Of a DNA stretch of 64,000 nucleotides, positions 10,772-54,296 are shown piece by piece (the first letter of the stretch is position 1; each line of letters begins with the position of its first letter). Location of the stretch: positions 8,455-72,454 of the forward strand of contig CAVSGX010000004.1 in NCBI GenBank assembly GCA_963727715.1, written 5' to 3'. The position numbers and the translations under genes were made by a program. Source of the DNA: an uncultured bacterium (GTDB lineage Bacteria; Patescibacteriota; Minisyncoccia; Phycocordibacterales; DATDWN01). The notes under the pieces are model-generated. The model saw nothing but the letters and a program-made list of their open reading frames with translations, was not told the DNA's origin and ran no database searches.

Positions 10772-11387
10772 AACCGGTTAATGGTAACACAAAATTGATA
10801 CTTTCTCAAATTTTTAAATCACTAACAAAAATCCGCACCGGATTATCGGAGCGGGTTCTTGTAAGTAGGAAAGAAAAGAGCGATTATGCTCGTTTCTTCT
10901 TTGCAGCTTTTTTCTTCTTTGCCATAAAAGTGTATTTGAAACCAACCGGCTAGCCAATTGATTCCAGAAAAAAATTAATTTTTTTAAAGTTCGCAACGAA
11001 AATATTTTTTCGTTGTTCCGACCTGTCATAATTATAGTACAGAAAAAAATAAAAAAATATTTTTTTCAGACAAAAGTGTGGATAACTATTTTTCGAAAAA
11101 ATATTTGCAAAACAAATTTTCAAAAAGTATTTTCTAGAGCACGAATATTTTTCTGCTGAAAAATTTCTCTCGCTCGCCACTCAAGAAAACAATCGTCCTC
11201 GATGACGGGACTTCCGGCGAACTCCTCGCTTCGCTCGTCAAACACCGCCTTCACCCTCTCCCATCTCGTCGTTGTTTTCTAAGTGGCTCCGCAGTCTCCA
11301 AAAAACACTTTTTGAAAATTTTTTTTGTGACATATTCTTGTCTCAGCGGGATTGGAAAAACAAAAAAACACCGCGTGGTGTTTTTTG

Positions 11388-11468
11388 TCCCGCCGATGAG
11401 CGGCGGGCGGAGACGAACCTCCAACAAATGTCATTTTGTGAGTGTTATCCGCCTGCCACTCATCAGTA
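11388..11468. other. Long imperfect stem-loop (about 20-bp stem, about 35-nt loop) in a 930-bp noncoding region
   Basis: ccgATGAGcGGCgGGCGGAgacg...cgTCCGCCtGCCaCTCATcag; the arms are reverse complements with two mismatches. Confidence 0.4.
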
Positions 11469-11524
11469 AGACAAATAAAGCATAGCAAATTGGCCAAAAT
11501 CAGGCAACCCACCAATTTACATAA

Positions 11525-11555
11525 ACCACAAAGCCCGCCGTGAGGCGGGCTTTGT
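11525..11555 (-). terminator. Perfect 13-bp hairpin with GTGA (GNRA) loop; candidate terminator for the 11700..13901 gene
   Basis: cacaaagcccgcc GTGA ggcgggctttgtg; on the minus strand it is followed by GTTTATGTAAATT. Confidence 0.4.
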
Positions 11556-11699
11556 GTGACATTCGTTGAGAGGTTGTGCCTTATTGCCGAAGCAATCCTG
11601 CATTCCACTCACCCCCACAGTATACTACAATTCGACAAATAAAGCAAATCAGAAAAAGTTGTTTGTTTTAGCCGTTTTTCAGCATAGGATATCCACAGA

Positions 11700-36654: not shown

Positions 36655-38508
36655 TCAATGCTGTTCAGGTTTATTTTTATCAATTGTGTCGTCCACATTA
36701 AGCACTTTACGCAAAACCTCTTCCGGCACTTCTTTCCCCGACGCTGGCGCGGCTGGGGTTTGGACGATTTCTTTTTTAATTCCGGGTTTTATTTCCGTTT
36801 TTATTTCCGGTTTATTCATAACTTGAGACAGAGCATTTTTCAAACTGGAAATATTTTCCACTGTCGGATTTTTTTTATTTTCACTTGAATTCAGAGTAGA
36901 TAATGAAGCTGTTTGCGCAGTTGGAGGATTCTTATTTGAATCTACTGGTTTTCTCTGCGAAAAAGATTTGTTGCGCAAATCTTCGGTGGCTTTTATAAAA
37001 GCCAACTTATTAGGATCAGGGGTTGCAATTGTTGGAGTATTGTTCTGGTTGTTATATTTCTCTTTCTCACTGAAAGGCTTGTTAAAAATCGGACGATTGT
37101 CGACGCTTCGCTGAGGAGATGCCGGCGCAGATAAGGGCATAGGCGAAAAGCTGGAACGTCCTGTTCCTATATTTCCGTCGCCTTGCCCACCACCAGCCAT
37201 TTTGTCTCTTTGGGCCGATGTCCCCTCTTCATGCCATTTTTTTATTTCTGCCTCGACTTCGCCCCGTGGTCGGGTAAACTGTTTCCACGAGCTTTCCATA
37301 ACTTCTTTTTTGAATGAGACATCCGGCCTAGTAATCGGTGGCATAGTGACAGCTGAAAACGGCGCTGAAGAAACTTCATCGATCATCAATTTCAAATAAA
37401 TTTGGTATTTGCCAAGATTGACCAAATCTTCGGCGGTGAAAGTTGGAGCGAATTCTTTTTCCAAAACTTCAGCATCAAAAGCGCCGACTCGAAATGTGAC
37501 CATGGTGCCAACGTTGCCGAAAACGGCGTCGCGCACTTCCTCTTCCATTTGCTCAATGTACTGATGTGTGATGTTTAAACCTAATTTGTACTTGCGGGCT
37601 TCGGACAAAATGTCGGCAAAAGATTTGTTGGCGAAAGATTGAAACTCGTCCACATACAAATAAAAATTCGGCAGTTTGGCTAATTGCTCTTTGTTTTTGT
37701 CCGCTCGAGACATGGCCGCCAAGTATATTTTTGTGATAAGCATTGAACCAATGAGGTTGGCATTGCCCTCACCAACAAGCCCTTTGGACAAGTTGATGAG
37801 CAATATCTTTTTCTCATCCATAAAATCGCGAATGTCAAAAGATGATTTCGGCTGGCCGATTAAATTTCGGACAAGCGGGTTTGATGTGAATTGTCCGACT
37901 TTGTTTTGAATAGCCGGTGTGGCTTCGGCTGCGTATTTGTCGGTGTATTTGGCAAATTCCTCCGTCCAAAAAGTTTTGACCGATGGATCTTTGATGTTCT
38001 CCACCACTTTTTTGCGATACTCTTTGTCAGCTAACATTCGATTAACACCAAGAAGTGTGGCACCCGGATATTCCAAGAGCGCCAAAAGAGTGTTGTTTAA
38101 AATGTAAGCCATGCGAGCTGACCAAGCATCCACCCAGATTTTCTCAAACGTGGACATGAGGCCGTTGACCACCAGATGTCTTTTGTCCACACCAATATCT
38201 TCCAAGACATTGAAAGAAACTGGATGTTCCAAATCAAATGGCGCGAAATAAAGCACATCTTTGATGCGATTTTCCGGGATGTAATCCAGCAGTTTTTCGG
38301 CCATTGAACCGTGCGGATCTATGACGGCGATACCGTTGCCATTTTGAATATCCTGGATGGCCATATTTTCCAAAAGATTGGACTTGCCAACGCCGGTTTT
38401 GCCGATAACATAAACATGACGCAAGCGATCGCTTTCTTTGATACCAAAACGGATTTTTTTGTTGCGAGCGTCCGTTTCGGCAAAATATGTGATGGGGTTT
38501 GGGTCCAT
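36655..38508 (-). CDS. P-loop NTPase of the FtsK/HerA/TraD (type IV secretion DNA-binding domain-like) class with low-complexity Pro/Ser/Asn-rich C-terminal tail
   Basis: Walker A VIGKTGVGKSNLL, Walker B LYVDEFQSF; no TM segment; 617 aa. Confidence 0.55.
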   Translation of the reverse strand: MDPNPITYFAETDARNKKIRFGIKESDRLRHVYVIGKTGVGKSNLLENMAIQDIQNGNGIAVIDPHGSMAEKLLDYIPENRIKDVLYFAPFDLEHPVSFNVLEDIGVDKRHLVVNGLMSTFEKIWVDAWSARMAYILNNTLLALLEYPGATLLGVNRMLADKEYRKKVVENIKDPSVKTFWTEEFAKYTDKYAAEATPAIQNKVGQFTSNPLVRNLIGQPKSSFDIRDFMDEKKILLINLSKGLVGEGNANLIGSMLITKIYLAAMSRADKNKEQLAKLPNFYLYVDEFQSFANKSFADILSEARKYKLGLNITHQYIEQMEEEVRDAVFGNVGTMVTFRVGAFDAEVLEKEFAPTFTAEDLVNLGKYQIYLKLMIDEVSSAPFSAVTMPPITRPDVSFKKEVMESSWKQFTRPRGEVEAEIKKWHEEGTSAQRDKMAGGGQGDGNIGTGRSSFSPMPLSAPASPQRSVDNRPIFNKPFSEKEKYNNQNNTPTIATPDPNKLAFIKATEDLRNKSFSQRKPVDSNKNPPTAQTASLSTLNSSENKKNPTVENISSLKNALSQVMNKPEIKTEIKPGIKKEIVQTPAAPASGKEVPEEVLRKVLNVDDTIDKNKPEQH

Positions 38509-38587: not shown

Positions 38588-38672
38588 AGTAAAGAAAAAT
38601 TCAAAATTCAAAAACAAAAGAAAAAACAAATCGACAAGAGACAAGCTACCTTTTTGGAAATCACAAGAACGA
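38588..38672 (-). repeat. Conserved 3' flank downstream of the DGR VR/IMH (copy 1 of 3; other copies at 40604..40682 and 43418..43492)
   Basis: aaaattcaaaattcaaaaacaaaagaaaaaacaaatcgacaagagacaagctacctttttggaaatcacaagaac is present after all three target genes. Confidence 0.8.
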
Positions 38673-39650
38673 GCGGGAGAGGCGACCACCCAGAGGCGGA
38701 TGGGAACTGGACGGAGCATCGGCACGGACACCGAGCCGGGAACCGGCGGGGTTCCAATAGGCGCAGACGACACGAAAGGAAGATGGGGCGGTTTTGTCAG
38801 GGTTTGGCACTTTAGACCCGGGCAAAGCGGTCCAGTAGTATAGACCATCTTTCTCGTTTTTGGTGTCTATGTGCTTGCCTGTTTGTTCAAAGATTTTTCT
38901 TTGCAGGATGAGATAATCGGACAGAGTTAGAGATTGGTTCGGAGGCAAGGAGAGAAAGGTTTCAATCTTTTTGTTCAGAGTTTGTTTAAGCTCTGATTGT
39001 TGCCAGAGTTCTTGACTGTGGACTAGAACGATTCTTCTTTTTTTGTCTTCTATTACTCCTTCAAACCCGCCACCCGAGTTGAAATTGCTTCCGGTGTATG
39101 TTTCGTTGTATCCTTCCGACATTTTAGCGTTTAGGTCTGTCAGGTTTGGCAGAGTTTCCGGAATGAGCAGGATTGTGTCAAAACCGTGTTTTTCTATTTC
39201 TTCTCTGATTTGGTCAATGTTTCTTTCCCAGATGTTTTTCATCGTCTCGGAGAAGTCTTTCGGTCTGTCTATGGAGTGGGTTGTGTAAAAGGAAGTAAAG
39301 TATTCTATTTCTTTTTCAATATCTATGGTTATGGTTTCTTTCTTTTCTTCAGTGGTTGTTTTGCCGGTTTTTTCGTCTTTTGTCTCTTCGATATGTTTGT
39401 ATTCCACTTCTAGAGTTGTTGAGGATTTGCCTTCTATCTTTCTTTTGAGAGAACGGCATTGGGAGAGTGTTTCTTTGATTTTCAGGCTTAGTTCTTTCTG
39501 TTTCTCTGTATCTCCGCTCTCAATGGCTTTTAGGAGTTTATCTTTCATTTCTTCGGCCTGAGAGAGCAGGCCTTCCATTACGGTCAAGTCGGCCAGAGCT
39601 TGTTCTTTGGTTGGTGGAGAGTTTGGGATTTTGGGAGATTCGTGGGACAT
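38661..39650 (-). CDS. DGR target protein 1 (329 aa): Glu/Lys-rich coiled-coil N-terminus, conserved ligand-binding-type C-terminal domain ending in the variable repeat
   Basis: C-terminal region is shared with 40671..41660 and with the C-terminus of 43485..45512 (..YNETYTGSNFNSGGGFEGVIEDKKRRIVL..). The VR lies at the extreme 3' end, and the stop follows the IMH-like GC-rich TCGCCTCTCCCGC. Confidence 0.8.
   Translation of the reverse strand: MSHESPKIPNSPPTKEQALADLTVMEGLLSQAEEMKDKLLKAIESGDTEKQKELSLKIKETLSQCRSLKRKIEGKSSTTLEVEYKHIEETKDEKTGKTTTEEKKETITIDIEKEIEYFTSFYTTHSIDRPKDFSETMKNIWERNIDQIREEIEKHGFDTILLIPETLPNLTDLNAKMSEGYNETYTGSNFNSGGGFEGVIEDKKRRIVLVHSQELWQQSELKQTLNKKIETFLSLPPNQSLTLSDYLILQRKIFEQTGKHIDTKNEKDGLYYWTALPGSKVPNPDKTAPSSFRVVCAYWNPAGSRLGVRADAPSSSHPPLGGRLSRSFL
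38674..38771 (-). repeat. DGR variable repeat VR-1 (3' end of target gene 38661..39650)
   Basis: 98-bp match to the TR at 43081..43177; within the TR/VR alignment it differs from the TR only at template adenines (sense strand), apart from one sense-strand T-to-G difference in the IMH-proximal segment; encodes VVCAYWNPAGSRLGVRADAPSSSHPPLGGRLSR. Confidence 0.85.
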
Positions 39651-39666
39651 AATGGATGGATGATAA

Positions 39667-40347
39667 TCAGTCTAATTTTATTAATTTCTTTGTCAGAACA
39701 GGAATTTCTTTTTGAAAAAAAGTTTTGACCGAATTCCAATCAGCGTCAAAAAAGATGACCGGCTCTGGATCGCTTTCGGCATCGTCAAAATAAACCATAC
39801 TTTTCAAGATATGGTGATAGTCGTGAGCCACAGACGGATACTGTCCCGGCAATCGTCTGATAATATTTTCCAGCGGTTCCACATTTTTGGCGCACCAGTA
39901 CAAATCAAAGAAATCTCTTTTTCTGCCTCTTTGCGAGCTGGCGATTATTTTCATCACGGCCACATCCGTTTTATTCAAAATTTTGACAAAACCGTATTCC
40001 AAAAATTTTTGTTTTGGAATAAAAAACGGATAAGCGATAAAACTGATTTTGGTGTCATACAATACGCCATATAAAGTGTTTGGTTCATCAATATCCGTGC
40101 TCCAATTTTCATTGCTTGCAAAACGAGATAACAGTTTCTTTGTTATAAAACTTTTTTCTGTGGTAAAAAAATCCAAATCAACAGATTTGCGATTGCCGGC
40201 CTGCAAAGCTAAGGCGGTGCCACCGGCCAGATACCAGCCTGATTCACTCAGCCATTCTTGGGTTGATAAAAAATCCAGAGCTGTTTTGGTTGATTTGGGT
40301 AAACATGAAAAGTTGATGATATTTAATTTTGAAGTGTCAGTGTCCAT
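39667..40347 (-). CDS. Nucleotidyltransferase AbiEii/AbiGii-family toxin (DUF1814)
   Basis: WYLAGGTALALQAGNRKSVDLDFF matches the AbiEii GGTAL...R.S.DlDf signature; 226 aa. Confidence 0.7.
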   Translation of the reverse strand: MDTDTSKLNIINFSCLPKSTKTALDFLSTQEWLSESGWYLAGGTALALQAGNRKSVDLDFFTTEKSFITKKLLSRFASNENWSTDIDEPNTLYGVLYDTKISFIAYPFFIPKQKFLEYGFVKILNKTDVAVMKIIASSQRGRKRDFFDLYWCAKNVEPLENIIRRLPGQYPSVAHDYHHILKSMVYFDDAESDPEPVIFFDADWNSVKTFFQKEIPVLTKKLIKLD

Positions 40348-40603: not shown

Positions 40604-40682
40604 AAAAAATTCAAAATTCAAAAACAAAAGAAAAAACAAATCGACAAGAGACAAGCTACCTTTTTGGAAATCACAAGAACGA
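40604..40682 (-). repeat. Conserved 3' flank downstream of the DGR VR/IMH (copy 2 of 3)
   Basis: Same 3'-flank repeat family as 38588..38672 and 43418..43492 (aaaattcaaaattcaaaaacaaaagaaaaaacaaatcgacaagagacaagctacctttttggaaatcacaagaac); lies immediately downstream (minus-strand sense) of target 2 and its VR/IMH. Confidence 0.8.
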
Positions 40683-41660
40683 GCGGGAGAGGCGACCACC
40701 CAGAGGCGGATTGGAAATGGACGGATCATTGGCAACGACATTGAGCTGGGAACCGTCGGGGTACCAATGGGCGCAGACGACACGAAAGGAAGATGGGGCG
40801 GTTTTGTCAGGGTTTGGCACTTTAGACCCGGGCAAAGCGGTCCAGTAGTATAGACCATCTTTCTCGTTTTTGGTGTCTATGTGCTTGCCTGTTTGTTCAA
40901 AGATTTTTCTTTGCAGGATGAGATAATCGGACAGAGTTAGAGATTGGTTCGGAGGCAAGGAGAGAAAGGTTTCAATCTTTTTGTTCAGAGTTTGTTTAAG
41001 CTCTGATTGTTGCCAGAGTTCTTGACTGTGGACTAGAACGATTCTTCTTTTTTTGTCTTCTATTACTCCTTCAAACCCGCCACCCGAGTTGAAATTGCTT
41101 CCGGTGTATGTTTCGTTGTATCCTTCCGACATTTTAGCGTTTAGGTCTGTCAGGTTTGGCAGAGTTTCCGGAATGAGCAGGATTGTGTCAAAACCGTGTT
41201 TTTCTATTTCTTCTCTGATTTGGTCAATGTTTCTTTCCCAGATGTTTTTCATCGTCTCGGAGAAGTCTTTCGGTCTGTCTATGGAGTGGGTTGTGTAAAA
41301 GGAAGTAAAGTATTCTATTTCTTTTTCAATATCTATGGTTATGGTTTCTTTCTTTTCTTCAGTGGTTGTTTTGCCGGTTTTTTCGTCTTTTGTCTCTTCG
41401 ATATGTTTGTATTCCACTTCTAGAGTTGTTGAGGATTTGCCTTCTATCTTTCTTTTGAGAGAACGGCATTGGGAGAGTGTTTCTTTGATTTTCAGGCTTA
41501 GTTCTTTCTGTTTCTCTGTATCTCCGCTCTCAATGGCTTTTAGGAGTTTATCTTTCATTTCTTCGGCCTGAGAGAGCAGGCCTTCCATTACGGTCAAGTC
41601 GGCCAGAGCTTGTTCTTTGGTTGGTGGAGAGTTTGGGATTTTGGGAGATTCGTGGGACAT
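40671..41660 (-). CDS. DGR target protein 2 (329 aa); recent paralogous duplicate of target 1
   Basis: Protein is identical to target 1 except within the VR-encoded tail. About 1.07 kb of DNA (40604-41670 vs 38588-39660) is near-identical outside the VR. Confidence 0.8.
   Translation of the reverse strand: MSHESPKIPNSPPTKEQALADLTVMEGLLSQAEEMKDKLLKAIESGDTEKQKELSLKIKETLSQCRSLKRKIEGKSSTTLEVEYKHIEETKDEKTGKTTTEEKKETITIDIEKEIEYFTSFYTTHSIDRPKDFSETMKNIWERNIDQIREEIEKHGFDTILLIPETLPNLTDLNAKMSEGYNETYTGSNFNSGGGFEGVIEDKKRRIVLVHSQELWQQSELKQTLNKKIETFLSLPPNQSLTLSDYLILQRKIFEQTGKHIDTKNEKDGLYYWTALPGSKVPNPDKTAPSSFRVVCAHWYPDGSQLNVVANDPSISNPPLGGRLSRSFL
40684..40781 (-). repeat. DGR variable repeat VR-2 (3' end of target gene 40671..41660)
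   Basis: Encodes VVCAHWYPDGSQLNVVANDPSISNPPLGGRLSR. Within the TR/VR alignment all differences from the TR are at template adenines (sense strand), apart from one sense-strand T-to-G difference in the IMH-proximal segment. Confidence 0.85.
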
Positions 41661-41672
41661 GGAAGTATTCTA

Positions 41673-42700
41673 TCATGTTATAACAATATCATTCAATATT
41701 GAAGTCAGTTTGTTTTTTAATCCAAATGAATCGCAGTGTTTCAGTAAAGCAAAATAAGACTGAAAATTATTCTTGTTCATTCTTTCAAAAATTTTTTGCT
41801 TGGTTTTATCTCTCAATAAAAGACAATCTGGCAAAGTCAGAGATCCTAGAAAATCTACTCCCCATTTTAATTTTCTGATTGAGATTTTATCATCCGGGAT
41901 TTGCAGAAACAGTTTTGCCATAAATTTTTTAATTTCAACCAAACAAAACCCCAATCTTTTTTTATTTTTATTTACCAAAATAAAATCGTCGTTGTATCTT
42001 ATATAAAATCTGGCGTTTAATTTTTTCTTCACAAAATGGTCAAAATCGTTCAAATAAATGTTGGCGAAAATCTGGCTGGTGATGTTGCCGAGCGGGATGC
42101 TTTTGTCAGAGCCATGAAGCGAGCAAAAACTTTCTACTATTTTCCCCACTTCCAAAAAAATATTTTCATTTTTCACTTTTCTTTTGATAAATTTCAGCAG
42201 TAGGCGGTGGTTGACACTTTCAAAGTATTTTTTGACATCGCATTTTAAAATAAAAACATCCCCATTTTTTCTTTTCGCCAATCCATTGAAATATTGGAGA
42301 GTTTTGACGGCTTTATGCGTTCCTTTTCCGTCTCTGGATGAATAACGGCTTTATGCGTTCCTTTTCCGTCTCTGGATGAATATGAGTCGGCAATAAATGC
42401 CGGCTCAAATAGATTTTTCAAATAATCGGATATTATTTGATGAATAATTCTATCTTTAACTTCAGCTTTGTGAATATTTCTTTTCTTGTTGTCAGTAACA
42501 ATAAAATGCGAATACCCGCCATGGCGGTAAGTTTTGTTTTTCAGATCTCTGTGCAAATCAAAAATATTGTCTTCCAAATGTCTTTCAAAAATCATTACAT
42601 CCATCTTGGAGGACTTTCCCCGCCGAAATTTCCGCCAAGCTGAAAATATATTATCAAGACTGAATAATTCGTTATAATTTTTATGGAACAAGACGCTCAT
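41673..42700 (-). pseudogene. DGR reverse transcriptase, reading frame broken by a 38-bp tandem duplication (ORF track pieces 42245..43024 and 41673..42281)
   Basis: N-terminal piece: LFSLDNIFSAWRKFRRGKSSKMDVMIFERHLEDNIFDLHRDLKNKTYRHGGYSHFIVTDNKKRNIHKAEVKDRIIHQIISDYL...DSYSSRDGKGTHKAV (DGR-RT motifs 1-2). C-terminal piece: ILKCDVKKYFESVNH, IPLGNITSQIFANIYLNDFD, YIRYNDDFIL (YxDD). Deleting one copy of the 38-bp unit fuses the two pieces in frame to ...GKGTHKAVKTLQYFNGLAKRKNGDVFILKCDVKKYF.... Confidence 0.85.
42307..42382. repeat. Perfect 38-bp direct tandem duplication (2 copies) inside the RT gene
   Basis: acggctttatgcgttccttttccgtctctggatgaata occurs twice in tandem; 38 is not divisible by 3, so this is a frameshift. 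Confidence 0.9.
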
Positions 42701-43057
42701 AAAATTGAAAAATTGGAAATGCCTATTATGGCCAAACTCTTTATCATTTACGAACTGACGCACAAGCTTATTTTCAAATTGCCGAAATTTGAAAGATACA
42801 CTTTGGGTGAAAAAATTGAAAATATCATCTTGGAAACGATTGAAATAATTGTCATCGCCAATGGGACGAACAAATACGAAAAAGAAAAATATTTGCTCAA
42901 AGCCAATGCCAAAGTGGAAATGCTTAAGTTGCTTTTTCGCATCGTTTTGAACTGCCAAATCATTGATTTCAAAAAATATTTGGAGGCGGAAGGGTTGCTT
43001 CAAGAAATCGGCAAAATGGCGCAAGGTTGGATAAAATACACCAGAAACGCAAAATAG
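42683..43057 (+). CDS. avd: Avd (accessory variability determinant; four-helix-bundle protein, bAvd/23S-rRNA-IVP family), transcribed divergently from the RT; likely start at Met 42719
   Basis: KLFIIYELTHKLIFKLPKFERYTLGEKIENIILETIEIIVIANG...LLKANAKVEMLKLLFRIVLNCQII...EAEGLLQEIGKMAQGWIKY matches the four-helix-bundle family pattern (FPK.E.Y.L..Q..R...SI..NIAEG......f...A.GS..El...l..a..l.yi......l......igkml.gli). The antisense strand here gives only a Phe-rich nonsense extension of the RT ORF. Confidence 0.7.
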   Translation: MEQDAHKIEKLEMPIMAKLFIIYELTHKLIFKLPKFERYTLGEKIENIILETIEIIVIANGTNKYEKEKYLLKANAKVEMLKLLFRIVLNCQIIDFKKYLEAEGLLQEIGKMAQGWIKYTRNAK

Positions 43058-43080
43058 CTTTTGTATAAAGCAAGAACGGC

Positions 43081-43177
43081 GGGAGAGGCGACAACCCAGA
43101 TTCGGATTGGAATTGGACGGATCATTGGCATTGACATTGAGCTGGGAATTGTCGGGGTTCCAATTGGCGCAGACGAC
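43081..43177 (-). repeat. DGR template repeat (TR), noncoding, between the VR-bearing main target gene and avd/RT
   Basis: Sense strand reads ..VVCA NWNPDNSQLNVNANDPSNSNPNLGCRLSR with 9 AAT (Asn) codons and no in-frame stop context. IMH*-like end TCGCCTCTCCCGCCGTTCTTGC differs from the VR IMH ends (..CCCGCTCGTTCTTGTGA). Confidence 0.85.
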
Positions 43178-43417: not shown

Positions 43418-43492
43418 AAAAAATTCAAAATTCAAAAACAAAAGAAAAAACAAATCGACAAGAGACAAGCTACCTTTTTGGAAATCACAAGA
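43418..43492 (-). repeat. Conserved 3' flank downstream of the DGR VR/IMH (copy 3 of 3)
   Basis: Same 3'-flank repeat family as 38588..38672 and 40604..40682 (aaaattcaaaattcaaaaacaaaagaaaaaacaaatcgacaagagacaagctacctttttggaaatcacaagaac); lies immediately downstream (minus-strand sense) of the main AAA+ target and its VR/IMH. Confidence 0.8.
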
Positions 43493-45512
43493 ACGAGCGG
43501 GAGAGGCGACAACCCAGATTCGGATAGGAATAGGACGGATCATCGGCACCGACAACGAGCTGGGAATAGCCGGGGTCCCAATGGGCGCAGACGACGCGGA
43601 AACCGCCGGATGGATTTTTGACTGTTGAGCCGGGTAGCCATGTCCAACCGTCTTCATCCAAATGTTTGCCTGTTTGTTCAAAATATTGCTTTTGATACAA
43701 CAAATAATCTGTCAGAGACATTTTTTCACCTTGCGATATAAACTCCTCGGCTTTTTTATTCAGAGTTTTCTTCAGTTCCGAATGGTCTTTCAGATTTTGA
43801 GCGCTGTTTTTATGAATCAAAACGATTCTTCTTTTTTTGTCTTCTATTACTCCTTCAAACCCGCCACCCGAGTCGAAATTGCTTCCGGTGTATGTTTCGT
43901 TGTATCCTTCTGACATTTTTTTATGTATATCGGTTATGGTCAATCCTCCGGGCACAAGCAAAATCTCATCAAAACCATATTTTTCTACTTCTTGTTTTAT
44001 CTCGTCATAATTGTTCACCCATATATCCGCCATTTCTTCCGCAAATGATTCCGTCAATTCAATTTCGTGAGCTTTATAAAAAAGAAGAGAATCCTCAAGT
44101 TTTTTGTCAAAATTTATTTCTATTTTCTCTTTCTTTTCTTTGCCTTTCTCGTCCACGATTTTGTGTTCGGCAGAAACCACCGGTTCAAACGAACTGCCGG
44201 TCAATTCTCTTCTTTTACTTCTGAAAAATTTCTCCAAATCGGCTATTTCATTTTCAATCTTCTCTATCCCGTCCGCCGGACTTTCGGTTTTACCACCTTC
44301 AGGAATTGCCTCAGCAGACGCTTCTTTTTCTTCTTCGTTATTTTTCTTTTTTCTTTTCGTTCCTTTGCGTTTGGAATCTTTGGTTTCTATTTTGACTTCA
44401 ACCAATCGGATGATTTCTTCCAATTTTGTTCTGTCTTCGGCGCTTTCCAGTCTGTTGACATAATAATATTTCAGGGCTTTTTGAAAAGTTTCGCTGATGT
44501 CGCCATTGTAAAAACGCAAAACAAAATTTCTGACCCGCCTCGGCTCTTCGCGGTCGTCATAGGTGAAAACTTGTGGTTGATCTTCGGCGATTTGCCTGTT
44601 TTTCAAAAGTTCTTTGGCGGTTTTGTGAAATTCCTTGTATTTTTCCAAAATTTCGGCAATGCCTGGAATTTCCGAAAGTTGTTCCTGCGTCAAACCACCG
44701 GCGCCGGATAAAAACATATCATCAGGCAATTCGGCGGTTTTCTTTTCCAAACCGTTCTCTAAACCAAACAATGCACCAGTCGCTTGCTTAAAGGTCTCTT
44801 CCGGTAATTCATTTGGCATTTTTTTATAAACCCATCTGCGAAGCTGAGCTGGATCAAGTGGCTTTCTATCCAAATAACCGGCTCCCGGAGGATTCATAAA
44901 AGCGATGATTTTGGTTTTTTGTTTAGAAACTTTAACTGTTTCCGAAGCGTCTTCTGACAAAATGACATCGCTATCACGCTCCAGAGAATCCAAAACTTCA
45001 TGCAAACGAATCAAAATGTTCGGCGCCGATGAGTTGAATTCGTCCAAAACAATAATTTTGACTTTACCGTCTTCCTGTCGTAAACCGCTAGTTACTTTTC
45101 CGTCGGCGAAAATGTATTCCGGGTCTTCCGCATTATTTTTACGAGGATTTGGTATATATCGGCCCATCAAATCCTCCACATCCGTGGCACCGTTTAAGTT
45201 TATGTAATGAACTTCGTAGCCGAGCTCACTGGCCATTTTTCGCACCGTGGTGGTCTTACCAAAAGATGTTCCGCTTTCCACGGCAATAGGGTCGCCCATG
45301 GAAAACGACACGGCGATGTCACGTTGCAGTGGCAGAGCCACTTCGGTATCATTGGTGTAGTCCTTGTAATTTTCTCTTCTTGGCACAAATTGGCCATTTC
45401 TGTTTTTAGCTTTTTCCAGAGTAACACCCATATAAGAAACACTCCCGTCAGTTTCCATTATCGGCTCCAGTTTTGCTTCCGGATTGTTAAATTGTCCTTC
45501 TGGTGTTTTCAT
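43485..45512 (-). CDS. DGR main target: AAA_5/MoxR-type AAA+ ATPase fused to a long acidic linker and the conserved DGR-diversified C-terminal domain (675 aa)
   Basis: Walker A VESGTSFGKTT, Walker B KIIVLDEFN, sensor region ..IIAFMNPPGAGYLDRKPLDPAQLRRW. The C-terminal 170 aa is homologous to targets 1 and 2 and ends in VR-3. No signal peptide or TM segment. Confidence 0.85.
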   Translation of the reverse strand: MKTPEGQFNNPEAKLEPIMETDGSVSYMGVTLEKAKNRNGQFVPRRENYKDYTNDTEVALPLQRDIAVSFSMGDPIAVESGTSFGKTTTVRKMASELGYEVHYINLNGATDVEDLMGRYIPNPRKNNAEDPEYIFADGKVTSGLRQEDGKVKIIVLDEFNSSAPNILIRLHEVLDSLERDSDVILSEDASETVKVSKQKTKIIAFMNPPGAGYLDRKPLDPAQLRRWVYKKMPNELPEETFKQATGALFGLENGLEKKTAELPDDMFLSGAGGLTQEQLSEIPGIAEILEKYKEFHKTAKELLKNRQIAEDQPQVFTYDDREEPRRVRNFVLRFYNGDISETFQKALKYYYVNRLESAEDRTKLEEIIRLVEVKIETKDSKRKGTKRKKKNNEEEKEASAEAIPEGGKTESPADGIEKIENEIADLEKFFRSKRRELTGSSFEPVVSAEHKIVDEKGKEKKEKIEINFDKKLEDSLLFYKAHEIELTESFAEEMADIWVNNYDEIKQEVEKYGFDEILLVPGGLTITDIHKKMSEGYNETYTGSNFDSGGGFEGVIEDKKRRIVLIHKNSAQNLKDHSELKKTLNKKAEEFISQGEKMSLTDYLLYQKQYFEQTGKHLDEDGWTWLPGSTVKNPSGGFRVVCAHWDPGYSQLVVGADDPSYSYPNLGCRLSRSFL
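43496..43593 (-). repeat. DGR variable repeat VR-3 (3' end of the AAA+ target gene)
   Basis: Encodes VVCAHWDPGYSQLVVGADDPSYSYPNLGCRLSR. It differs from the TR at 12 positions, all corresponding to TR adenines. Confidence 0.85.
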
Positions 45513-45515
45513 ATT

Positions 45516-45917
45516 TTATGAACGATAAACCGGCCCAACTTTGTCTATAATTTCAAAACTTCTTTCTTTCAATTTCGCCAAAACGCTTTCCGTAGCGACC
45601 AAAACCAAAACCTGACTTTGATAATCAGGTGAAAAAACTTTTGATTCATTTTTTTCTTTATCAAAAATCTCAACTTGACCTGTCGGATACTGCGCGACAA
45701 AATCATATAAGTCCTTCGGTAGATTTTCGTCCAAAACCAGATACATTTTTTGAAAACCAAAAAAATCAAAAACATTTTTTGATGTTTGAAATCCACTATC
45801 TTCAAAAAACTTGATAAAACCACCCATCTCGCTTTCATCCCGCGCCAAAACAAGTCCGACATCTTTTTGTCCTTTCAAGATATCCAGAAACTCATGCAGA
45901 CCTTCGTTTTTGTTCAT
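45516..45917 (-). CDS. Hypothetical small protein (133 aa) between the VWA partner and the AAA+ DGR target
   Basis: Complete ORF; 4-bp gap to the downstream gene suggests co-transcription. Confidence 0.5.
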   Translation of the reverse strand: MNKNEGLHEFLDILKGQKDVGLVLARDESEMGGFIKFFEDSGFQTSKNVFDFFGFQKMYLVLDENLPKDLYDFVAQYPTGQVEIFDKEKNESKVFSPDYQSQVLVLVATESVLAKLKERSFEIIDKVGPVYRS

Positions 45918-45956
45918 AGTTGTATTCTAACACTAACCGGAAAATTATCAAATTTT

Positions 45957-48242
45957 TCAACCAACAACTTCTTTCTCAAGTATTTCTGATATATCTTTTA
46001 TTATTTTGTCCACTTTTATATTATCGGATTTTAGCGGGTAATAAATAAGCTTTACACCGCCGGCTTTTTCGATTTTGCCTTTAATTTTTTGAAAATCATA
46101 TTTTGAGCCGGGATGTTTAGTGGATTCAGCTGGTCTGTCATCCGAAAAAACAATCATTATTTTGTTGTCTGTTTTTTGTTTTGCAAGTCTTGCCGAAGCG
46201 GTTTCCATAGCCCAACCAATGTCGGTTTCATTATGCTCATTTCCGCAATTTTTGCAACAACTATCTTCAACCTCTTTAAACATTCCTCCCATGTGTTCCC
46301 TGATTTTTTTTGACATTGGCTCTCCAAATTTTTGATACTCGTATATATCATCATTAAAACCGTTAATTTCAACGTTCAATCCTAGTTTGTTTAATGCTTC
46401 AGCCAGCACAACTTTTGCTTTGAAATCTTCTTCAATTTTTTTACGCATAGAACCAGATAAATCGTTTAGAATGGAAATTGAATATTCTTTTTCATCTGGT
46501 TTTTCTCTTTTTTGCCAAGCGTTGCTTTCTATTGGCGAAATGCGTCTGGCTTTTTCCTGAATCCTTGTTTTTATATCAATTCTTTTGCCTATTCTAAAGC
46601 CCTTTTTCCATCTTGTGGTTTGGGTGTCAACAAATATCTGTCTTAGTTTATTTTCCAATTCATCAATCAGCGACGAAACTTCTCGTCGGTGCTTTTCATA
46701 AATATTTTCGTCTTTATTGACTTCTCTTTTTAATCTTTCTTTGTATATTCTCAATCCTTCCAAATCAAGAGGTTCTTTTCTTAAAGTTCCGGTTCTGACC
46801 GGAGCGCCGCCTTGATTTTGATTGTTTATTTCAACCCCTGGCAAATTTTCCGGCGGTTCTGGATTTTTTCTTTCTGCTTTTTCCTCCGGATTTTCAGTCA
46901 ATTTGCCTTCCATTTCTTCGTTTAGTTTGTCTTCAAATTCCTTCAGCGCTTTTTCGGCTCTGTCGGCCAGCTCTTTTTTCACATCTTCCGGAAGCGAGTC
47001 GACATAATCCCTTATTTTTTGTTTTATTTCGTCGGAAAGGTCGTTCAGGTTTATTGTCCTCGCACCGATATCGTCTAGCGTCTGTGGTTGTTCATTGCCG
47101 GTGTTGTCTTCGTGTGGAGTCGGCTTGTTTGTGATTTTATCTTCTCCCTGCCCACCTGTTGACATTGGTTTGATTTTTTCTTTCTCTTTTTTTGCTTCAT
47201 CAATAGCTTTGTCAATAGCATTTTCCAACGTTTTCTTTTCTTCTTCGGTTAATTTGTCTTCCAAATCTTTTGGCAGTTTTGATTTTTTTTCATTTTTTTT
47301 ATCTTCACTTTCTCCTTCCTGATTTCCGTTATCTTTTTGTCCATCACCACCTTCCTTCCCATTTTCTCTTTCTTGCTCTTTTTTCATTTCTTCCATCATC
47401 TTTTTCATCACATCTTTCAACACTTCTTCCATTTTCTCATCCTCTTTATCTGCTTCAACCAGTTTTTTAAATTCTGGCCAAATTTCTTCCAGATTTATTT
47501 CATACGACACTTTGGCGTATTCTTTTATTTTTTCTTCACTTTCATCCGCTTCCTCTCGCGACGGATATCGCCACCAAGAATCCTGAGCTGATTTCAGTGT
47601 GGCTAAAACAACAGCTTTGACTTCTTCGGGCAAATCTTCCGAAATTTCAAAATTCTGTCCCTGTTTTTCACGAAACCATTGTCTAATATATTCATACCCC
47701 GCTTGCACAAAACGCGGTTGGAAACCCAGTTTTTCGGTAGCTTCTTTCTTTTCTTTTTCTCTTTTGGCAAAAAAATCATCCCAAGCAAATTTTATATTTT
47801 CATCGTATTTCGGATAACTCTCGGAAACAAAGTTGTCGTTTCTGGGATCTTCAATGAAATTCATCATAGCTGAAAAGCCCGGTTGTCGCCATGTTTCAAT
47901 CGGAATAAAATCTGTTCTGGAAACTCGTCTATGTCCTCCTTCGTGACAAATTAAATATCTCAATAATTCAATTGGCTCCGTCAGCAGAGTTTTCGGGTCA
48001 ACTCTGATGACATTTTTTTGAAAATCCCAATGCCAGCCAGCGCCTGGTTGGTTTAGTTCTATCGGCATCTCAAAATCTTTGCCAATAAAATAAGCCAGAG
48101 ATGACAAAATATTTTTCTTGCGCAGAATTTCTTTTTGTTCTTCTTCGTTAAATCGCTTCAAGATTTCCTCTTCTGGATTTTGCCGGAGAGAATCGTAGGT
48201 TTGTTCGTTTTGATTGAATTTTGGTCCTTCCATAATTTGCAA
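45957..48242 (-). CDS. Putative zinc metallopeptidase (HExxH) N-domain, Glu/Lys-rich low-complexity linker and C-terminal VWA (MIDAS) domain; DUF2201-like AAA-partner architecture
   Basis: LICHEGGHRRVS (HExxH); central 300 aa of E/K-rich repeats; C-terminal ..ISILNDLSGSMRKK.. (DxSxS MIDAS) ...IMIVFSDDRPAEST... Confidence 0.75.
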   Translation of the reverse strand: MQIMEGPKFNQNEQTYDSLRQNPEEEILKRFNEEEQKEILRKKNILSSLAYFIGKDFEMPIELNQPGAGWHWDFQKNVIRVDPKTLLTEPIELLRYLICHEGGHRRVSRTDFIPIETWRQPGFSAMMNFIEDPRNDNFVSESYPKYDENIKFAWDDFFAKREKEKKEATEKLGFQPRFVQAGYEYIRQWFREKQGQNFEISEDLPEEVKAVVLATLKSAQDSWWRYPSREEADESEEKIKEYAKVSYEINLEEIWPEFKKLVEADKEDEKMEEVLKDVMKKMMEEMKKEQERENGKEGGDGQKDNGNQEGESEDKKNEKKSKLPKDLEDKLTEEEKKTLENAIDKAIDEAKKEKEKIKPMSTGGQGEDKITNKPTPHEDNTGNEQPQTLDDIGARTINLNDLSDEIKQKIRDYVDSLPEDVKKELADRAEKALKEFEDKLNEEMEGKLTENPEEKAERKNPEPPENLPGVEINNQNQGGAPVRTGTLRKEPLDLEGLRIYKERLKREVNKDENIYEKHRREVSSLIDELENKLRQIFVDTQTTRWKKGFRIGKRIDIKTRIQEKARRISPIESNAWQKREKPDEKEYSISILNDLSGSMRKKIEEDFKAKVVLAEALNKLGLNVEINGFNDDIYEYQKFGEPMSKKIREHMGGMFKEVEDSCCKNCGNEHNETDIGWAMETASARLAKQKTDNKIMIVFSDDRPAESTKHPGSKYDFQKIKGKIEKAGGVKLIYYPLKSDNIKVDKIIKDISEILEKEVVG

Positions 48243-49543: not shown

Positions 49544-49849
49544 TTAGAGTTGTTTGTCCTGGTTAGAAATTTCAGTGATCGTTTCAACTGTATCAGGTTT
49601 CGGTTCGGGTTTAGGTAAAATCTCCTCTCTCATCTCCGGTGCGCTTTCGCTCCAAATTGGAGTGATTTTTTCTCGGCGACGGCGAGGAATATTGTGACGG
49701 GGCAGAGAAAATTTAACCGAGAGTAAAATCAAACAGAGGCCGGAGATAACAGCCAAAAAAGTTCGGCCGGATGACGGCAAACCGAAAAAAGGAATGAGAA
49801 AAATAAATATCCCCAGAAAAAATGTTTTGTTGTTTTTTATCATATACAA
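49544..49849 (-). CDS. Small membrane protein (101 aa, two TM helices)
   Basis: Hydrophobic N-terminal two thirds; no homolog recognised. Confidence 0.4.
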   Translation of the reverse strand: MYMIKNNKTFFLGIFIFLIPFFGLPSSGRTFLAVISGLCLILLSVKFSLPRHNIPRRRREKITPIWSESAPEMREEILPKPEPKPDTVETITEISNQDKQL

Positions 49850-49971
49850 ATCTTAATATAAAAATGTGAAAATGAAAAGCTGATAGATATAAAAAGAAAG
49901 GCCCGGCGCTTGCGCACCAGGCCAGGATTCTTCGGGTCCCAACCGCCTCTCGTGAGAGAGGAAAGAACGAA

Positions 49972-50763
49972 CTAGACCGCGGCCGGCTCCTCAACTTCGG
50001 CGTCGTCGCCCGTCCAGCCGGCTCTCTCCAGGGCCGTTGCCATGATGGCAGTGCCATTGGGACCCGCTGGGTAACTCGCGTCTTCCTGGGCGACCGCCCC
50101 CGGCGAAGTGAATTTGCTGTCCGGGAATGGCTTCTTGTGACCGCCGCCACGTTGGTTGCTGGACGAATTCGGCAGGTGGTATTTGCCCTTGTTGTGAACG
50201 CTGTCCACCAGGCCCCACAGACTGTCGTCCGATTCCATCCGGTCGGCGTAAGCCAACTTGAGGAAACCGGCGATGTTCTTGAATTCATCTTCGCCGGCGC
50301 CGAGACCGAGAAGAGCGGCCAGAAGTCCCTGAACGGCGTAGAAGAAGTCTTCCGTGTCGCCGTGCGCCTTGGTCCATTCCGGCGCCTGCCAGGTCGGTTT
50401 CGCGAAGTCGTCCGAGAGTAGTCGATGGAGATAGATATCTCCGATTTCCTGGCGGTCGGTCAGCCTGATGAACTCCGGAATCGCCCCGACCCACAAACGG
50501 TTCGGGAACTTCGTGACGAATCTCACGGCAGCATCGACGCCCGCCGGGCACTCGATGGCCGCGAAGATCGTCTCAGTGCTCGTCATCACATCGGCCAACC
50601 TGACTGTGCCGGCGACGAGCCGGTCAAGGATAGAAACAGCCTCGACCGAGCGCCTCTCCCGATGTCGGAGGCTAGTAGCCTCCAAGGTCTCCTTGACAGC
50701 TTCATTTGGAGGCGGCATGACAGTGGCAGCCGCCTTAATCCTGCGGAGCAAATTCAATCCCAT
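49972..50763 (-). CDS. Hypothetical protein encoded in a high-GC (about 60%) island; compositionally foreign
   Basis: 263-aa ORF with strong GC3 bias (Ala/Gly/Arg-rich) embedded in about 37% GC host DNA; flanked 3' by GC-rich hairpins (cctctcGTGAgagagg; ggcccggcgcttgcgcaccaggcc). Confidence 0.6.
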   Translation of the reverse strand: MGLNLLRRIKAAATVMPPPNEAVKETLEATSLRHRERRSVEAVSILDRLVAGTVRLADVMTSTETIFAAIECPAGVDAAVRFVTKFPNRLWVGAIPEFIRLTDRQEIGDIYLHRLLSDDFAKPTWQAPEWTKAHGDTEDFFYAVQGLLAALLGLGAGEDEFKNIAGFLKLAYADRMESDDSLWGLVDSVHNKGKYHLPNSSSNQRGGGHKKPFPDSKFTSPGAVAQEDASYPAGPNGTAIMATALERAGWTGDDAEVEEPAAV

Positions 50764-50985
50764 AAAAACCTCTTCTCCTCCATTTAGCCTAGGAGGTCGG
50801 CATTTTTCGAGGATCGTGCCTTTGGTTTAAACCTCCAGCATTCCGCAGATAAGTATACACCTTTTAATAATTTTGTCAAGCACATTTTTGGCCATATTTT
50901 AAGCCACTTTTTTAAGCATAAAAAATTACCTATTTATTTTTCCAAAAAAAATCCTGTGGCGTGTGGCCAGCAGGATTATCAAGAA

Positions 50986-51513
50986 CTATTGCTTTTTATA
51001 CAACTTTTCCTTCACATGACTGTAGACTTCATCGCTCAATCGAAACTCTCCCATAAGATACGAGGCGATTTCCTTGGCGAATCTGACCATGGCCGGCCGC
51101 TCGAGATCCCAATCTGTGAAGGTGTGACAATTTGGATTTCTCTTACCGTCAGCGTCAAGAGTAACATCAACGAATGCTACATTTCTACAGAGAGAAAAAA
51201 TGAAATCGGTGCCGTAGAAATAATCCATCGGCGTACCGAAGGCAGTCAAAAGCCTGAGATGACGACGCAGTCTTTTTGGCAAATGCTGTTTGACTTCGAC
51301 AAACACTTGCCAGAAGAAAGCGTTGTTTTCTTTCAAAGCATTCTGATCGGCATTGCGAGCTAGGACTAAATTAATTGTCTCCACCATAGCGGTGGGGAAA
51401 TCAAAACGTTGGCTGTCTGGCCCATATGCCACCCAGCCGGTATCTACGGAAGAAAAACCCCCACAAAACCTTTCAAAATCATATCCGGTTCGAAATGACT
51501 GTCTCGTTTGCAC
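50986..51513 (-). CDS. Hypothetical protein (175 aa), moderately elevated GC, adjacent to the high-GC gene
   Basis: Complete ORF with coding-like periodicity; no recognisable family. Confidence 0.45.
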   Translation of the reverse strand: MQTRQSFRTGYDFERFCGGFSSVDTGWVAYGPDSQRFDFPTAMVETINLVLARNADQNALKENNAFFWQVFVEVKQHLPKRLRRHLRLLTAFGTPMDYFYGTDFIFSLCRNVAFVDVTLDADGKRNPNCHTFTDWDLERPAMVRFAKEIASYLMGEFRLSDEVYSHVKEKLYKKQ

Positions 51514-51558
51514 ATTTGGACTCCTCTGCTACTATATAAGCATAAAGCAAAAATAAAG

Positions 51559-52596
51559 TCAACTGATTTGCAAGTTTGGCAAAAGTTCCCTGTCTCGCTC
51601 CGTTTCTTCAATAATTTTTGCCATATCTGCCACTACTTCCAAGGGGTACTTGCCAACGGCCGTTTCTTCGGAGAGCATGACTGCTTCAGCGCCATCCAAA
51701 ACGGCATTGGCCACATCAGAAACTTCGGCCCGAGTCGGTCTTTCGTTTTCCACCATTGATTCCATCATTTGAGTGGCGATGATTGTCGGTTTACTGACCT
51801 CGTTGCATTTTCCGGTGATCATTTTTTGAACGAACGGCACTTTTTCAAAAGGAATCTCCACGGCCAAGTCTCCGCGAGCCACCATTATGGAGTCCGAAGC
51901 GGAAATAATTTCGTCTATGTTCTCCACAGCTTGTGGTGTTTCTATTTTGGCGATGATTTTAGCTTGGCACCCGCGCTCTTCTAGAATTTTCCGTAATCCT
52001 AAAATATCCGAAGCTCTGCGAACAAAAGATACGGCCACAAAATCAACTTTGTTTTTTATACCGAACTCCAAACTGGCCAAATCTTTTTCGGTCAGAGCAT
52101 TAACCGAAAGTTCCGAGCCAGGCAGGTTGAGCCCCTTTCTGCTTTTGACTTCCCCGCCGATTAAAACTTTGCAGACGACATCATTGTCTTTGATTCCCGA
52201 GACTTCCAATTTTATTCTGCCATCGTCAATATAAATAAAATCGCCCGGAGAAACTTCTTTCGGCAAGAATGGGTAATTGACCGAAACACGGTTTTGGTCG
52301 CCTTGGCACTGGTCCGTGGTCAGAGTAAACATTTTTCCTTCTTTCAAACAAACAGTGTCGGATCCGAAATTGCCGATGCGGATTTTTGGCCCGGGCAAAT
52401 CCTGAATGACCCCGGCGACAATGCCGGTGTTTTTTACAGCTGTTTGAATATTGTCAAAGCGTTTTTGTTGCTCATCTATATCGGCTTGAGAAAAGTTGAG
52501 ACGAAAAATATTAGCTCCAGCTTTGAGCAATTCTTCAAGCATCTCCACATCTCTGGTTGATGGACCAATGGTGACAATAATTTTAGTTTTTCTCAT
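51559..52596 (-). CDS. pyk: Pyruvate kinase (short form without C-terminal regulatory domain); start at MRKTKII
   Basis: [33 protein letters not shown]..., ..[12 protein letters not shown].. catalytic motifs. Confidence 0.85.
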
Positions 52597-53281: not shown

Positions 53282-54296
53282 CTTTGAAGTAGGACAGTTA
53301 GAATTAATGCATTAGTCGAAAATTAATTTTAATTGTCATATGAAAAACAAATATCATCATTTGTCTTTTGAAGAGAGGTTTTGTATTGAAAAGATGTATT
53401 GCGCCGGTTCGGCCATTCGCAAAATTGCCGAATTTCTCGGTCGGAGTGTCAACACTGTGAGCAGAGAAATACAAAAACACAGTGTTAATGGGGTGTATGA
53501 AGCGGAAAAAGCCAAGCAGAAAGTTTCAATGAAAAGATGGCGAGCCAAACAGCAGTGTCTGAAAGTGGCGCTTGACCCGTTTCTCTGTCGATTCGTGGTG
53601 GAACGATTAACCAAGCCGTATCATTGGTCGCCGAAGCAGATTAGCGGGTATCTTGAATGTGAAATGGGTATCATCTGCTCGGCCAAAGCCATATACAAAT
53701 TTGCCGAGTCGAGAGGTCTAAACCACCTGCTTTTTTGGGGTTGGAACAATCACAAGGGTGGGAGAAAACGAAATCATTGGAAGCACATTCAGGATGGCAG
53801 GAAGTATATTGATGTCAGACCGGAGAGAAAAGGTCTAGGACACATTGAGCTCGATTTCATCGTTTCCAAAGACAGTTCGTGGGTACTTTTGGTTGCTGTG
53901 GATTGGCAAGCCAAAAGAACATGGGTCAGGAAACTGCCCAACAGAAAACGCGACACTATTCGTGCCGCGCTTTCCCGTCTGTTCCATGGTGTTGAATTGA
54001 AGAGCATCACCACAGACAACGATATTGCATTCACCTGTTGGAAAGAGTTGGAAACTCTCCTGCAAGTGCCAATCTATTTTACACATCCATACCATTCTTG
54101 GGAAAAAGGTCTGGTGGAAAACACCAACAGATGGATCAGATGTTTTGTGCCTAAACGAAGAGATATTGAGTCAGTCACTGAGGAAGAATTGCAAGAAATA
54201 CATTCCTTCCTAAACAACCGACCGAGAGAAGTGATTGGCTTCCGCGCGCCAATGAGTTATTATTCAAACATTAGTTCTGTCCTACTTGAGGGGTAA
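53282..54296 (+). mobile_element. IS30-family insertion sequence (about 1.0 kb) with imperfect terminal inverted repeats
   Basis: IRL cctttgAAGTAGGACAGttagaatTAATG (53282-) against IRR reverse complement cctcAAGTAGGACAGaacTAATG (ending about 54292). Single transposase ORF inside. Confidence 0.8.
53340..54296 (+). CDS. IS30-family DDE transposase
   Basis: N-terminal HTH (HLSFEERFCIEKMYCAGSAIRKIAEFLGRSVNTVSREI), DDE core with ..FTHPYHSWEKGLVENTNRWIRCFVPK... Confidence 0.85.
   Translation: MKNKYHHLSFEERFCIEKMYCAGSAIRKIAEFLGRSVNTVSREIQKHSVNGVYEAEKAKQKVSMKRWRAKQQCLKVALDPFLCRFVVERLTKPYHWSPKQISGYLECEMGIICSAKAIYKFAESRGLNHLLFWGWNNHKGGRKRNHWKHIQDGRKYIDVRPERKGLGHIELDFIVSKDSSWVLLVAVDWQAKRTWVRKLPNRKRDTIRAALSRLFHGVELKSITTDNDIAFTCWKELETLLQVPIYFTHPYHSWEKGLVENTNRWIRCFVPKRRDIESVTEEELQEIHSFLNNRPREVIGFRAPMSYYSNISSVLLEG

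Follow-up and report, generated by a model that had tools for sequence, protein, structure and literature searches.

A Patescibacteria diversity-generating retroelement targets the ATPase subunit of a conserved three-gene cassette

Why would a bacterium diversify a domain that is attached to an apparently cytoplasmic ATPase? Diversity-generating retroelements (DGRs) make up ~80% of the reverse transcriptases (RTs) in candidate phyla radiation (CPR) bacteria (PMC8632793). Published work treats one of the DGR targets of these bacteria, a fusion of an AAA ATPase to a lectin-type domain, as a single protein. We analyzed a window of 64,000 nucleotides from an uncultured member of the Patescibacteriota (the whole stretch examined, contig CAVSGX010000004.1, positions 8,455 to 72,454), in which a DGR lies beside three genes at 43485-48242 on the minus strand. 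We found here a canonical, adenine-specific DGR belonging to a CPR/Patescibacteria bacterium, and the target adjacent to it proved to be the ATPase subunit of a three-gene cassette that is conserved. This anatomy is secure, and from it we infer a function.

The DGR is recognizable first by its repeats. A 99-nt repeat is present four times in the window, once as a template repeat (TR, 43079-43177) containing 21 adenines and three times as a variable region (VR), all on the minus strand. VR1 (43497-43595) encodes residues 640-672 of the 675-aa ATPase target, its last 33 codons near the end of the gene. VR2 (40683-40781) and VR3 (38673-38771) lie at the 3' ends of two further targets of 329 aa each. 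Over the three VRs, 35 of the 37 mismatches to TR fall at TR adenines: all 11 in VR1, nine in VR2 and 15 in VR3, with one additional mismatch at a T in each of the latter two. All 21 TR adenines occupy codon position 1 or 2, typically in AAY codons, and a 25-nt pattern of the TR/VR core occurs four times in the window versus none in 100 shuffles (0 expected). An earlier sequence-only reading had proposed a hypervariable domain at the C-terminus of the ATPase, and the position of VR1, with its mismatches at TR adenines, bears this out.

The remaining components of a DGR, avd and RT, are located between TR and the next target. The avd accessory gene (42683-43057, plus strand) was identified by Pfam bAvd (E 1.4e-17, 64.5 bits versus a cut-off of 40) and by PHROG Avd (E 2.5e-21), and is transcribed opposite to the RT and the targets, as it is in the related loci L002-L013. 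The RT gene (41673-42700, minus strand) is split into two open reading frames (ORFs), the 3' one matching RVT_1 (E 9.8e-15). The cause is a frameshift from a 38-nt tandem duplication, with one copy at 42344-42381 and the other at 42306-42343. Beyond the RT gene lies a stand-alone 329-aa target (40671-41660, minus strand) that joins a coiled-coil N-terminus to the same C-type-lectin (CLec) module as the tail of the ATPase, and a second 329-aa target (38661-39650, minus strand) is a recent duplicate of the first. Over 1056 nt (38595-39650 and 40605-41660) the two genes are identical bar 12 positions, all in VR. Because the copies differ only there, diversification acted after a very recent duplication of this gene.

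Is the element still active? Deleting one copy of the 38-nt duplication in silico restored a 329-aa RT ORF with YNDD, and the duplication could be a real inactivating mutation, a polymorphism in the population or an artefact of assembly or consensus. If it is real, the locus may be decaying: the DGR would be a relic here, its RT inactivated by the duplication, and the VR differences would record past diversification. We regard this as possible but rather unlikely. The split ORF and its repair by removal of one copy are what such a relic predicts, but the 12 VR differences between genes that are otherwise identical place diversification in the very recent past, and the duplication may be polymorphic or artefactual. 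This alternative concerns activity and is compatible with each of the other readings weighed below.

The target next to TR is the last of three tightly spaced ORFs on the minus strand, which run in the order zincin-linker-VWA protein of 761 aa (45957-48242), conserved small protein of 133 aa (45516-45917) and AAA_5 ATPase of 675 aa (43485-45512; 657 aa in the version called by NCBI), VWA standing for von Willebrand factor A. All the elements that had been read from the letters of 43485-48242 were found there. The ATPase comprises a conserved module of residues 1-382 (44367-45512), within which Pfam AAA_5 matches residues 85-226 (44835-45260) with E 5.4e-12 and 46.3 bits versus a cut-off of 22. 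G85, K86 and T88 of Walker A (45249-45272), D157 and E158 of Walker B (45039-45044), N207, R225 and R226 are invariant among 39 homologues. The protein is thus an N-terminal AAA_5/MoxR-class ATPase with intact motifs, and it has a single AAA_5 domain per chain. The closest solved structures to this domain are AAA modules of midasin/Rea1 (6or5, E 2e-24 summed), and among PHROGs it matches the CobS-like family phrog_249. We also considered, and rejected, a phage origin of the module: tblastn against 50,697 phage records gave nothing, and the PHROG matches were limited to CobS/CobT-like families.

Following the module on the same strand are a charged linker (residues ~383-445) and a C-terminal CLec-fold module (residues 430-675, 43488-44225), with a charged tether of roughly 60-100 residues separating ATPase from lectin-fold domain. 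Structure prediction was applied to this tail and to the zincin domain of the partner. The predicted fold of the tail resembles, at moderate scores, EgtB, OvoA, SenA and PvdO as well as dozens of C-type lectins from animals, and the domain bears an extra N-terminal alpha/beta part. Given these matches, VR1 occupies the C-terminal end of a domain of the CLec type, like the VRs of canonical DGR targets. The 329-aa targets are 58-59% identical to the tail of the ATPase. Tails of this type, ending in ..GCRLSRSFL, are rare and otherwise occur mostly on stand-alone proteins of ~300-350 aa like the two 329-aa targets. One 99-nt tract of the ATPase tail (43821-43919) is 98% identical to tracts in the 329-aa genes (39027-39125 and 41037-41135), whereas the flanking segments are ~70-71% identical. 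Targets within a single locus may thus have exchanged sequence by gene conversion or recombination.

The 761-aa partner, likewise encoded on the minus strand, is built as the sequence-only reading had described it. An N-terminal zincin-like domain (residues 1-260, 47463-48242) carries the HEGGH motif at residues 100-104 (47931-47945). A long E/K/D-rich linker follows (residues ~261-500, 46743-47462; residues 260-500 are 43% E+K+D), and the protein ends in a VWA domain (residues 580-708, 46119-46505) with the metal-ion-dependent adhesion site (MIDAS) motif DLSGS (DxSxS) at residues 594-598 (46449-46463). E101 and H104 of HEGGH do not vary across 53 homologues, and the conservation of H100 is 90% or more. 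The predicted fold of the N-domain resembles, at statistically weak scores, the minigluzincins projannalysin, selecase and proabylysin, the M48 peptidases ZMPSTE24 and BepA, and M1, LTA4H, BlaR1 and IrrE. With its conserved HExxH plus a downstream E/D, this zincin-like fold is consistent with a gluzincin-like peptidase. No Pfam peptidase family matched any of the 53 members of the zincin–VWA family. The N-domain family is small: at E <=1e-3, 1.84 billion representatives yielded 246 clusters. In the matches listed the zincin domain is N-terminal, and seven of ten distant members scanned have a C-terminal VWA by Pfam. Among the most distant relatives listed is an 859-aa protein without a Pfam match, followed on the same strand by ORFs of 162 and 563 aa (L016, 8001-13717) in surroundings of hypothetical genes with a resolvase. 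Such an arrangement may represent a distant form of the cassette that falls beyond the main family.

The VWA domain itself is of the CobT_C type (E 1.4e-6, 28.6 bits versus a cut-off of 21), as it is in 52 of the 53 family members. Its closest solved relative is the MIDAS domain of midasin (6qt8, E 2e-5), and the partner matches the CobT family PHROG 17276. The label 'DUF2201-like', which had been attached to this protein, did not survive: DUF2201_N and DUF2201 matched none of the 53 members (E <=0.05). Because midasin/Rea1 provide the closest structures and the PHROG matches are CobS-like and CobT, the ATPase/VWA pair belongs to the MoxR/CobS-CobT/midasin branch of AAA+–VWA couples.

Between the two lies the 133-aa protein, with a conserved core of YDFxxQYPTGQxEIFD. 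Single-sequence and profile searches of Pfam, NCBIfam, PADLOC, PHROGs and PDB returned nothing significant for it, and NCBIfam matched none of the four proteins of the locus that were searched against it. The three cassette proteins and both 329-aa targets are predicted to be soluble and cytoplasmic. The maximum 19-residue Kyte-Doolittle mean is <=0.88 in all five, in line with the earlier statement that the target has no signal peptide or transmembrane (TM) segment. None of the five has a TM-like or signal-peptide-like stretch, a hydrophobic N-terminus or a lipobox-like N-terminus, as judged by a plain hydropathy scan with no dedicated signal-peptide predictor.

How general is this arrangement? 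The ATPase has hundreds of homologues, essentially all in Patescibacteria and from many CPR classes, and identity over residues 1-382 is 60-76%. All 15 loci found in genomes or on long contigs have their genes in the order zincin-VWA, small protein, ATPase. We also surveyed 78 metagenomic loci, counting for each element only the loci with room for it. The VWA domain is present in 47 of 48 of these and the zincin domain in 46 of 48; the small gene is kept in 69 of 72, and in 15 of 15 genome loci. The AAA+/VWA pairing proposed at the outset is thereby a near-constant feature. A DGR RT lies downstream of the cassette in 20 of 37 metagenomic loci. Seven further genome loci have an RT, and in each a VR makes up the 3' end of the ATPase gene and differs from a TR downstream of it at 14-20 positions, adenines only. 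Fusions of AAA_5 to VR beside VWA genes, which the sequence-only reading had suggested looking for, are therefore found elsewhere in CPR. The defence islands that it had suggested looking for along with them are not recognisable: the neighbours are mostly housekeeping genes.

In contrast to the one conserved chassis, the tails of the ATPases are swapped. We distinguished at least five lectin-type endings (..GVSLSRRL, ..GVVSVR, ..GFRxAVVLG, ..CGVRPAVRI and the ..GCRLSRSFL of the window), and other ATPases have a non-lectin tail, for example a repeat-containing one of the DUF7721 type, or none. Such modularity fits a ligand-selecting adaptor. Cassettes L012, L014 and L015 have no DGR, and a non-lectin tail or no tail. 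The L014 tail (11176-11742), also seen in L041-L043, L051 and L057, has a faint DUF7721 match and about six tandem repeats of roughly 90 nt, and these cassettes have no DGR nearby. At L010 (10001-12817), an ATPase homologue of 938 aa has two lectin modules in tandem, of the tail type seen in the window and both with VR-like copies of the repeat, the C-terminal one with 15 adenine-only mismatches to a TR at 13078-13191.

The fusion of AAA and lectin domains is in itself a known and widespread class of CPR DGR target. It had been presumed uncharacterized; as a claim that the fusion is unreported this falls, since surveys of 2017-2018 list it (PMC5758913, PMC10907252). Wu et al. 2018 (PMC5758913) described a CPR target class, 'UVR4', that matches the AAA domain of midasin; they left the VR fold unclassified and mentioned no VWA partner. 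According to Dore et al. 2024 (PMC10907252), where Paul et al. 2017 is cited for it, the target architecture seen most often in CPR is a CLec fused to an AAA ATPase; the same authors proposed for it a cytoplasmic role, with the ATPase transducing signals that the C-terminus senses, and placed most CPR RTs in a separate clade. Roux et al. 2021 reported CPR targets as typically lacking TM segments or other recognisable domains. The window is an instance of the class in these surveys (Paul 2017 as relayed in PMC10907252; Wu 2018, PMC5758913), from the same lineage and with an N-terminal AAA/midasin-like domain and a C-terminal VR. The surveys describe the target alone, whereas here it combines a CLec-like fold with an ATPase that is a subunit of a three-gene cassette. 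In full-text literature on DGRs together with MoxR/vWA/von Willebrand and CPR/Patescibacteria, we found no description of the partner genes, zincin–VWA and small protein. What appears to be new is that the target belongs, as a subunit, to a near-universal cassette of zincin-VWA, small protein and AAA_5 whose tails can be swapped.

A closely related arrangement is that of the MoxR-vWA 'ternary' conflict systems of multicellular bacteria, whose vWA component carries, as a fusion, an FGS/lectin domain diversified by a DGR (Kaur et al. 2020, PMC7159879; CPR were left out of the multicellularity statistics of that study). These systems (VMAP, iSTAND; PMC7159879, PMC10907252) share with the window a MoxR-class AAA+ protein, a vWA/MIDAS protein, a third component and a DGR that diversifies a C-terminal lectin fold, and in addition a peptidase (putative in the window), short lectin-only targets beside a long one and a predicted cytoplasmic localisation. 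In contrast, the lectin domain here is on the ATPase and not on the vWA protein, the vWA protein has an N-terminal zincin in place of C-terminal effectors, and the third component is the 133-aa protein, which has no match to VMAP, iSTAND, FtsH or beta-propeller models. The cassette is thus an inverted variant of a known MoxR-vWA-DGR theme. We rejected membership of the VMAP ternary systems themselves, as the third gene has no Pfam match (VMAP being judged on Pfam only) and the lectin domain is on the other subunit.

Three other systems are similar in part. CobS/CobT of the aerobic cobaltochelatase and the CobS/CobT-like pairs of phages also combine an AAA_5 ATPase with a partner in which a charged linker is joined to a VWA of the CobT_C type at the C-terminus, but the window has a zincin N-domain and a lectin tail in place of the CobT N-terminal and CobS_N domains. 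Membership was rejected, as only CobT_C and AAA_5 match, CobT N-terminal and CobS_N do not, and no CobN was found among the neighbouring window genes scanned. Midasin/Rea1 is the best solved match for both the AAA_5 and the VWA/MIDAS domains and has a long charged linker before its MIDAS, but in this giant eukaryotic protein six AAA domains share a single polypeptide with the MIDAS. In the cassette each chain has one AAA domain, the MIDAS belongs to a different protein, and there are zincin and lectin domains besides. Midasin too was set aside, given the single AAA_5 per chain and the MIDAS domain on another protein. DUF2201 proteins, metallopeptidases with a VWA-like domain that are paired with MoxR ATPases, share the general layout of N-terminal HExxH, C-terminal VWA-like domain and adjacent AAA_5 gene, but no zincin–VWA family member matches their Pfam models, and the N-domain family is self-contained.

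What, then, might such a cassette do? The reading that we favour, though tentatively, is an intracellular recognition machine of programmable specificity, with ATP-driven remodelling and/or proteolysis, and not a surface adhesin. By analogy with MoxR-VWA pairs, CobS/CobT, BchI/BchD and midasin, the ATPase would form a ring, and the partner's VWA would dock by its MIDAS face on this ring or a client. Flexibly tethered lectin domains would capture a ligand, and the DGR would reprogramme which ligand this is. Hydrolysis of ATP would then remodel the captured ligand or pass it to the gluzincin-like peptidase at the far end of the partner's charged linker; alternatively, capture would switch that peptidase on. 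The two 329-aa lectin-only targets would be free binders of the same fold, diversified from the same TR. The most probable ligands would be changing intracellular proteins of invaders (phages, mobile elements) or proteins exchanged with a host cell. The sequence-only reading had likened the locus to an NTPase-based sensor; this idea is reasonable and has already been voiced for MoxR-vWA systems coupled to DGR-diversified lectin domains (PMC7159879, PMC10907252).

A role in conflict or surveillance is favoured by the need for hypervariation and by the resemblance to the MoxR-vWA-DGR systems. Such a role is made less likely by the housekeeping context, by the lack of hits to catalogued defence systems and by the cassettes without a DGR or lectin tail, and several observations weigh against the intracellular recognition machine more broadly. 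The cassette adjoins genes for ATP synthase, glycolysis, RNA polymerase and ribosomal proteins, with no recognisable defence islands; flanking genes vary from locus to locus and are mostly housekeeping. PADLOC gave no evidence of a catalogued defence system, its sole match to the ATPase being a weak one to mad8 (E 2.5e-5), beside one to AbiEii in a neighbouring gene. No classical toxic effector is present. No MoxR-class ATPase is known to feed substrates to proteases. The hydropathy scan leaves non-classical export possible, and the frameshifted RT means that the element may currently be inactive in this genome. Finally, about half of the loci have no DGR nearby (17 of 37 metagenomic loci lack an RT) and some have no lectin tail, and because of this the core machine has a function independent of diversification.

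Such a function is the starting point of the main rival, which we consider unlikely: a housekeeping assembly chaperone, that is, a CPR-specific maturation factor of the MoxR/CobS-CobT/midasin kind for an endogenous complex, acting in metal-cofactor insertion or in the assembly or disassembly of a large particle. Its C-terminal domain would only select the client, and the DGR would be a secondary add-on that tunes an endogenous interaction. The strong identity of the N-module across many CPR classes, the embedding of the cassette among core genes and the existence of cassettes such as L012, L014 and L015, or of the 17 metagenomic loci without RT, all agree with this, as do the closest sequence relatives, CobS/CobT-like pairs and midasin, which are all assembly or chelatase machines. 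However, a fixed endogenous client needs no hypervariation, yet most tails are lectin-type and VR variation is adenine-only in all seven related DGR-bearing genome loci, as in the window; moreover, no CobN, CobT N-terminal or CobS_N domain was detected. A classical adhesin, whose lectin domain would bind a host surface from outside the cell after non-classical export while the ATPase module served export or assembly, is very unlikely, for although host attachment has been proposed for CPR/DPANN DGR targets (PMC8632793; PMC10907252, as far as it relays Paul 2017) and a gene for an ATPase resembling type-IV-secretion-system (T4SS) coupling proteins lies just beyond the third target (36655-38508), that gene is not kept next to the cassette in the other loci examined, the five proteins lack export signals, and AAA+ modules with intact motifs and a MIDAS-VWA partner need cytosolic ATP.

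The intracellular recognition machine can also be given a more specific form, which we think distinctly doubtful. In an 'antibody-directed' degradation or disassembly machine, a MoxR ring with reprogrammable lectin binders would capture arbitrary proteins inside the cell, phage- or host-derived, and present them, via the MIDAS-VWA adaptor, to the tethered zincin for cleavage. If this were true, direct-neutralisation immunity with anticipatory diversity would be the main job of DGRs in CPR. Placing the target within a near-universal, predicted-cytoplasmic cassette makes the role of CPR DGRs experimentally addressable, through complex formation, ATPase and peptidase activity and the ligands of VR variants, and gives these elements a mechanistic link to the conflict systems of MoxR–vWA type in multicellular bacteria. 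Were programmable binding indeed coupled to ATP-driven remodelling or proteolysis, the cassette would be an attractive engineering scaffold.

Several neighbouring genes are worth recording. An AbiEii-type nucleotidyltransferase (39667-40347, minus strand; Pfam E 3e-14) lies between the two 329-aa targets, without a recognisable AbiEi antitoxin; at L010 (8936-9586) an inserted homologue, 52% identical to it, separates the cassette's VWA gene from the small gene, and none was seen in the 78 metagenomic loci. The synteny of a DUF4015 gene upstream of the cassette is not kept in the other loci examined. The T4SS-like gene on the minus strand, which starts 150 bp beyond the third DGR target, encodes a 617-aa coupling-protein/HerA-like ATPase (T4SS-DNA_transf, TrwB_AAD_bind) with a long low-complexity C-terminus, and is followed by a run of glycosyltransferase genes. 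On the other side of the cassette, a patch at 49700-51600 has ~50% G+C, versus ~40% elsewhere, and contains two ORFs without a Pfam match (49972-50763 and 50986-51513). Near this patch is an IS30-like transposase gene (HTH_38 and rve) at 53340-54296.

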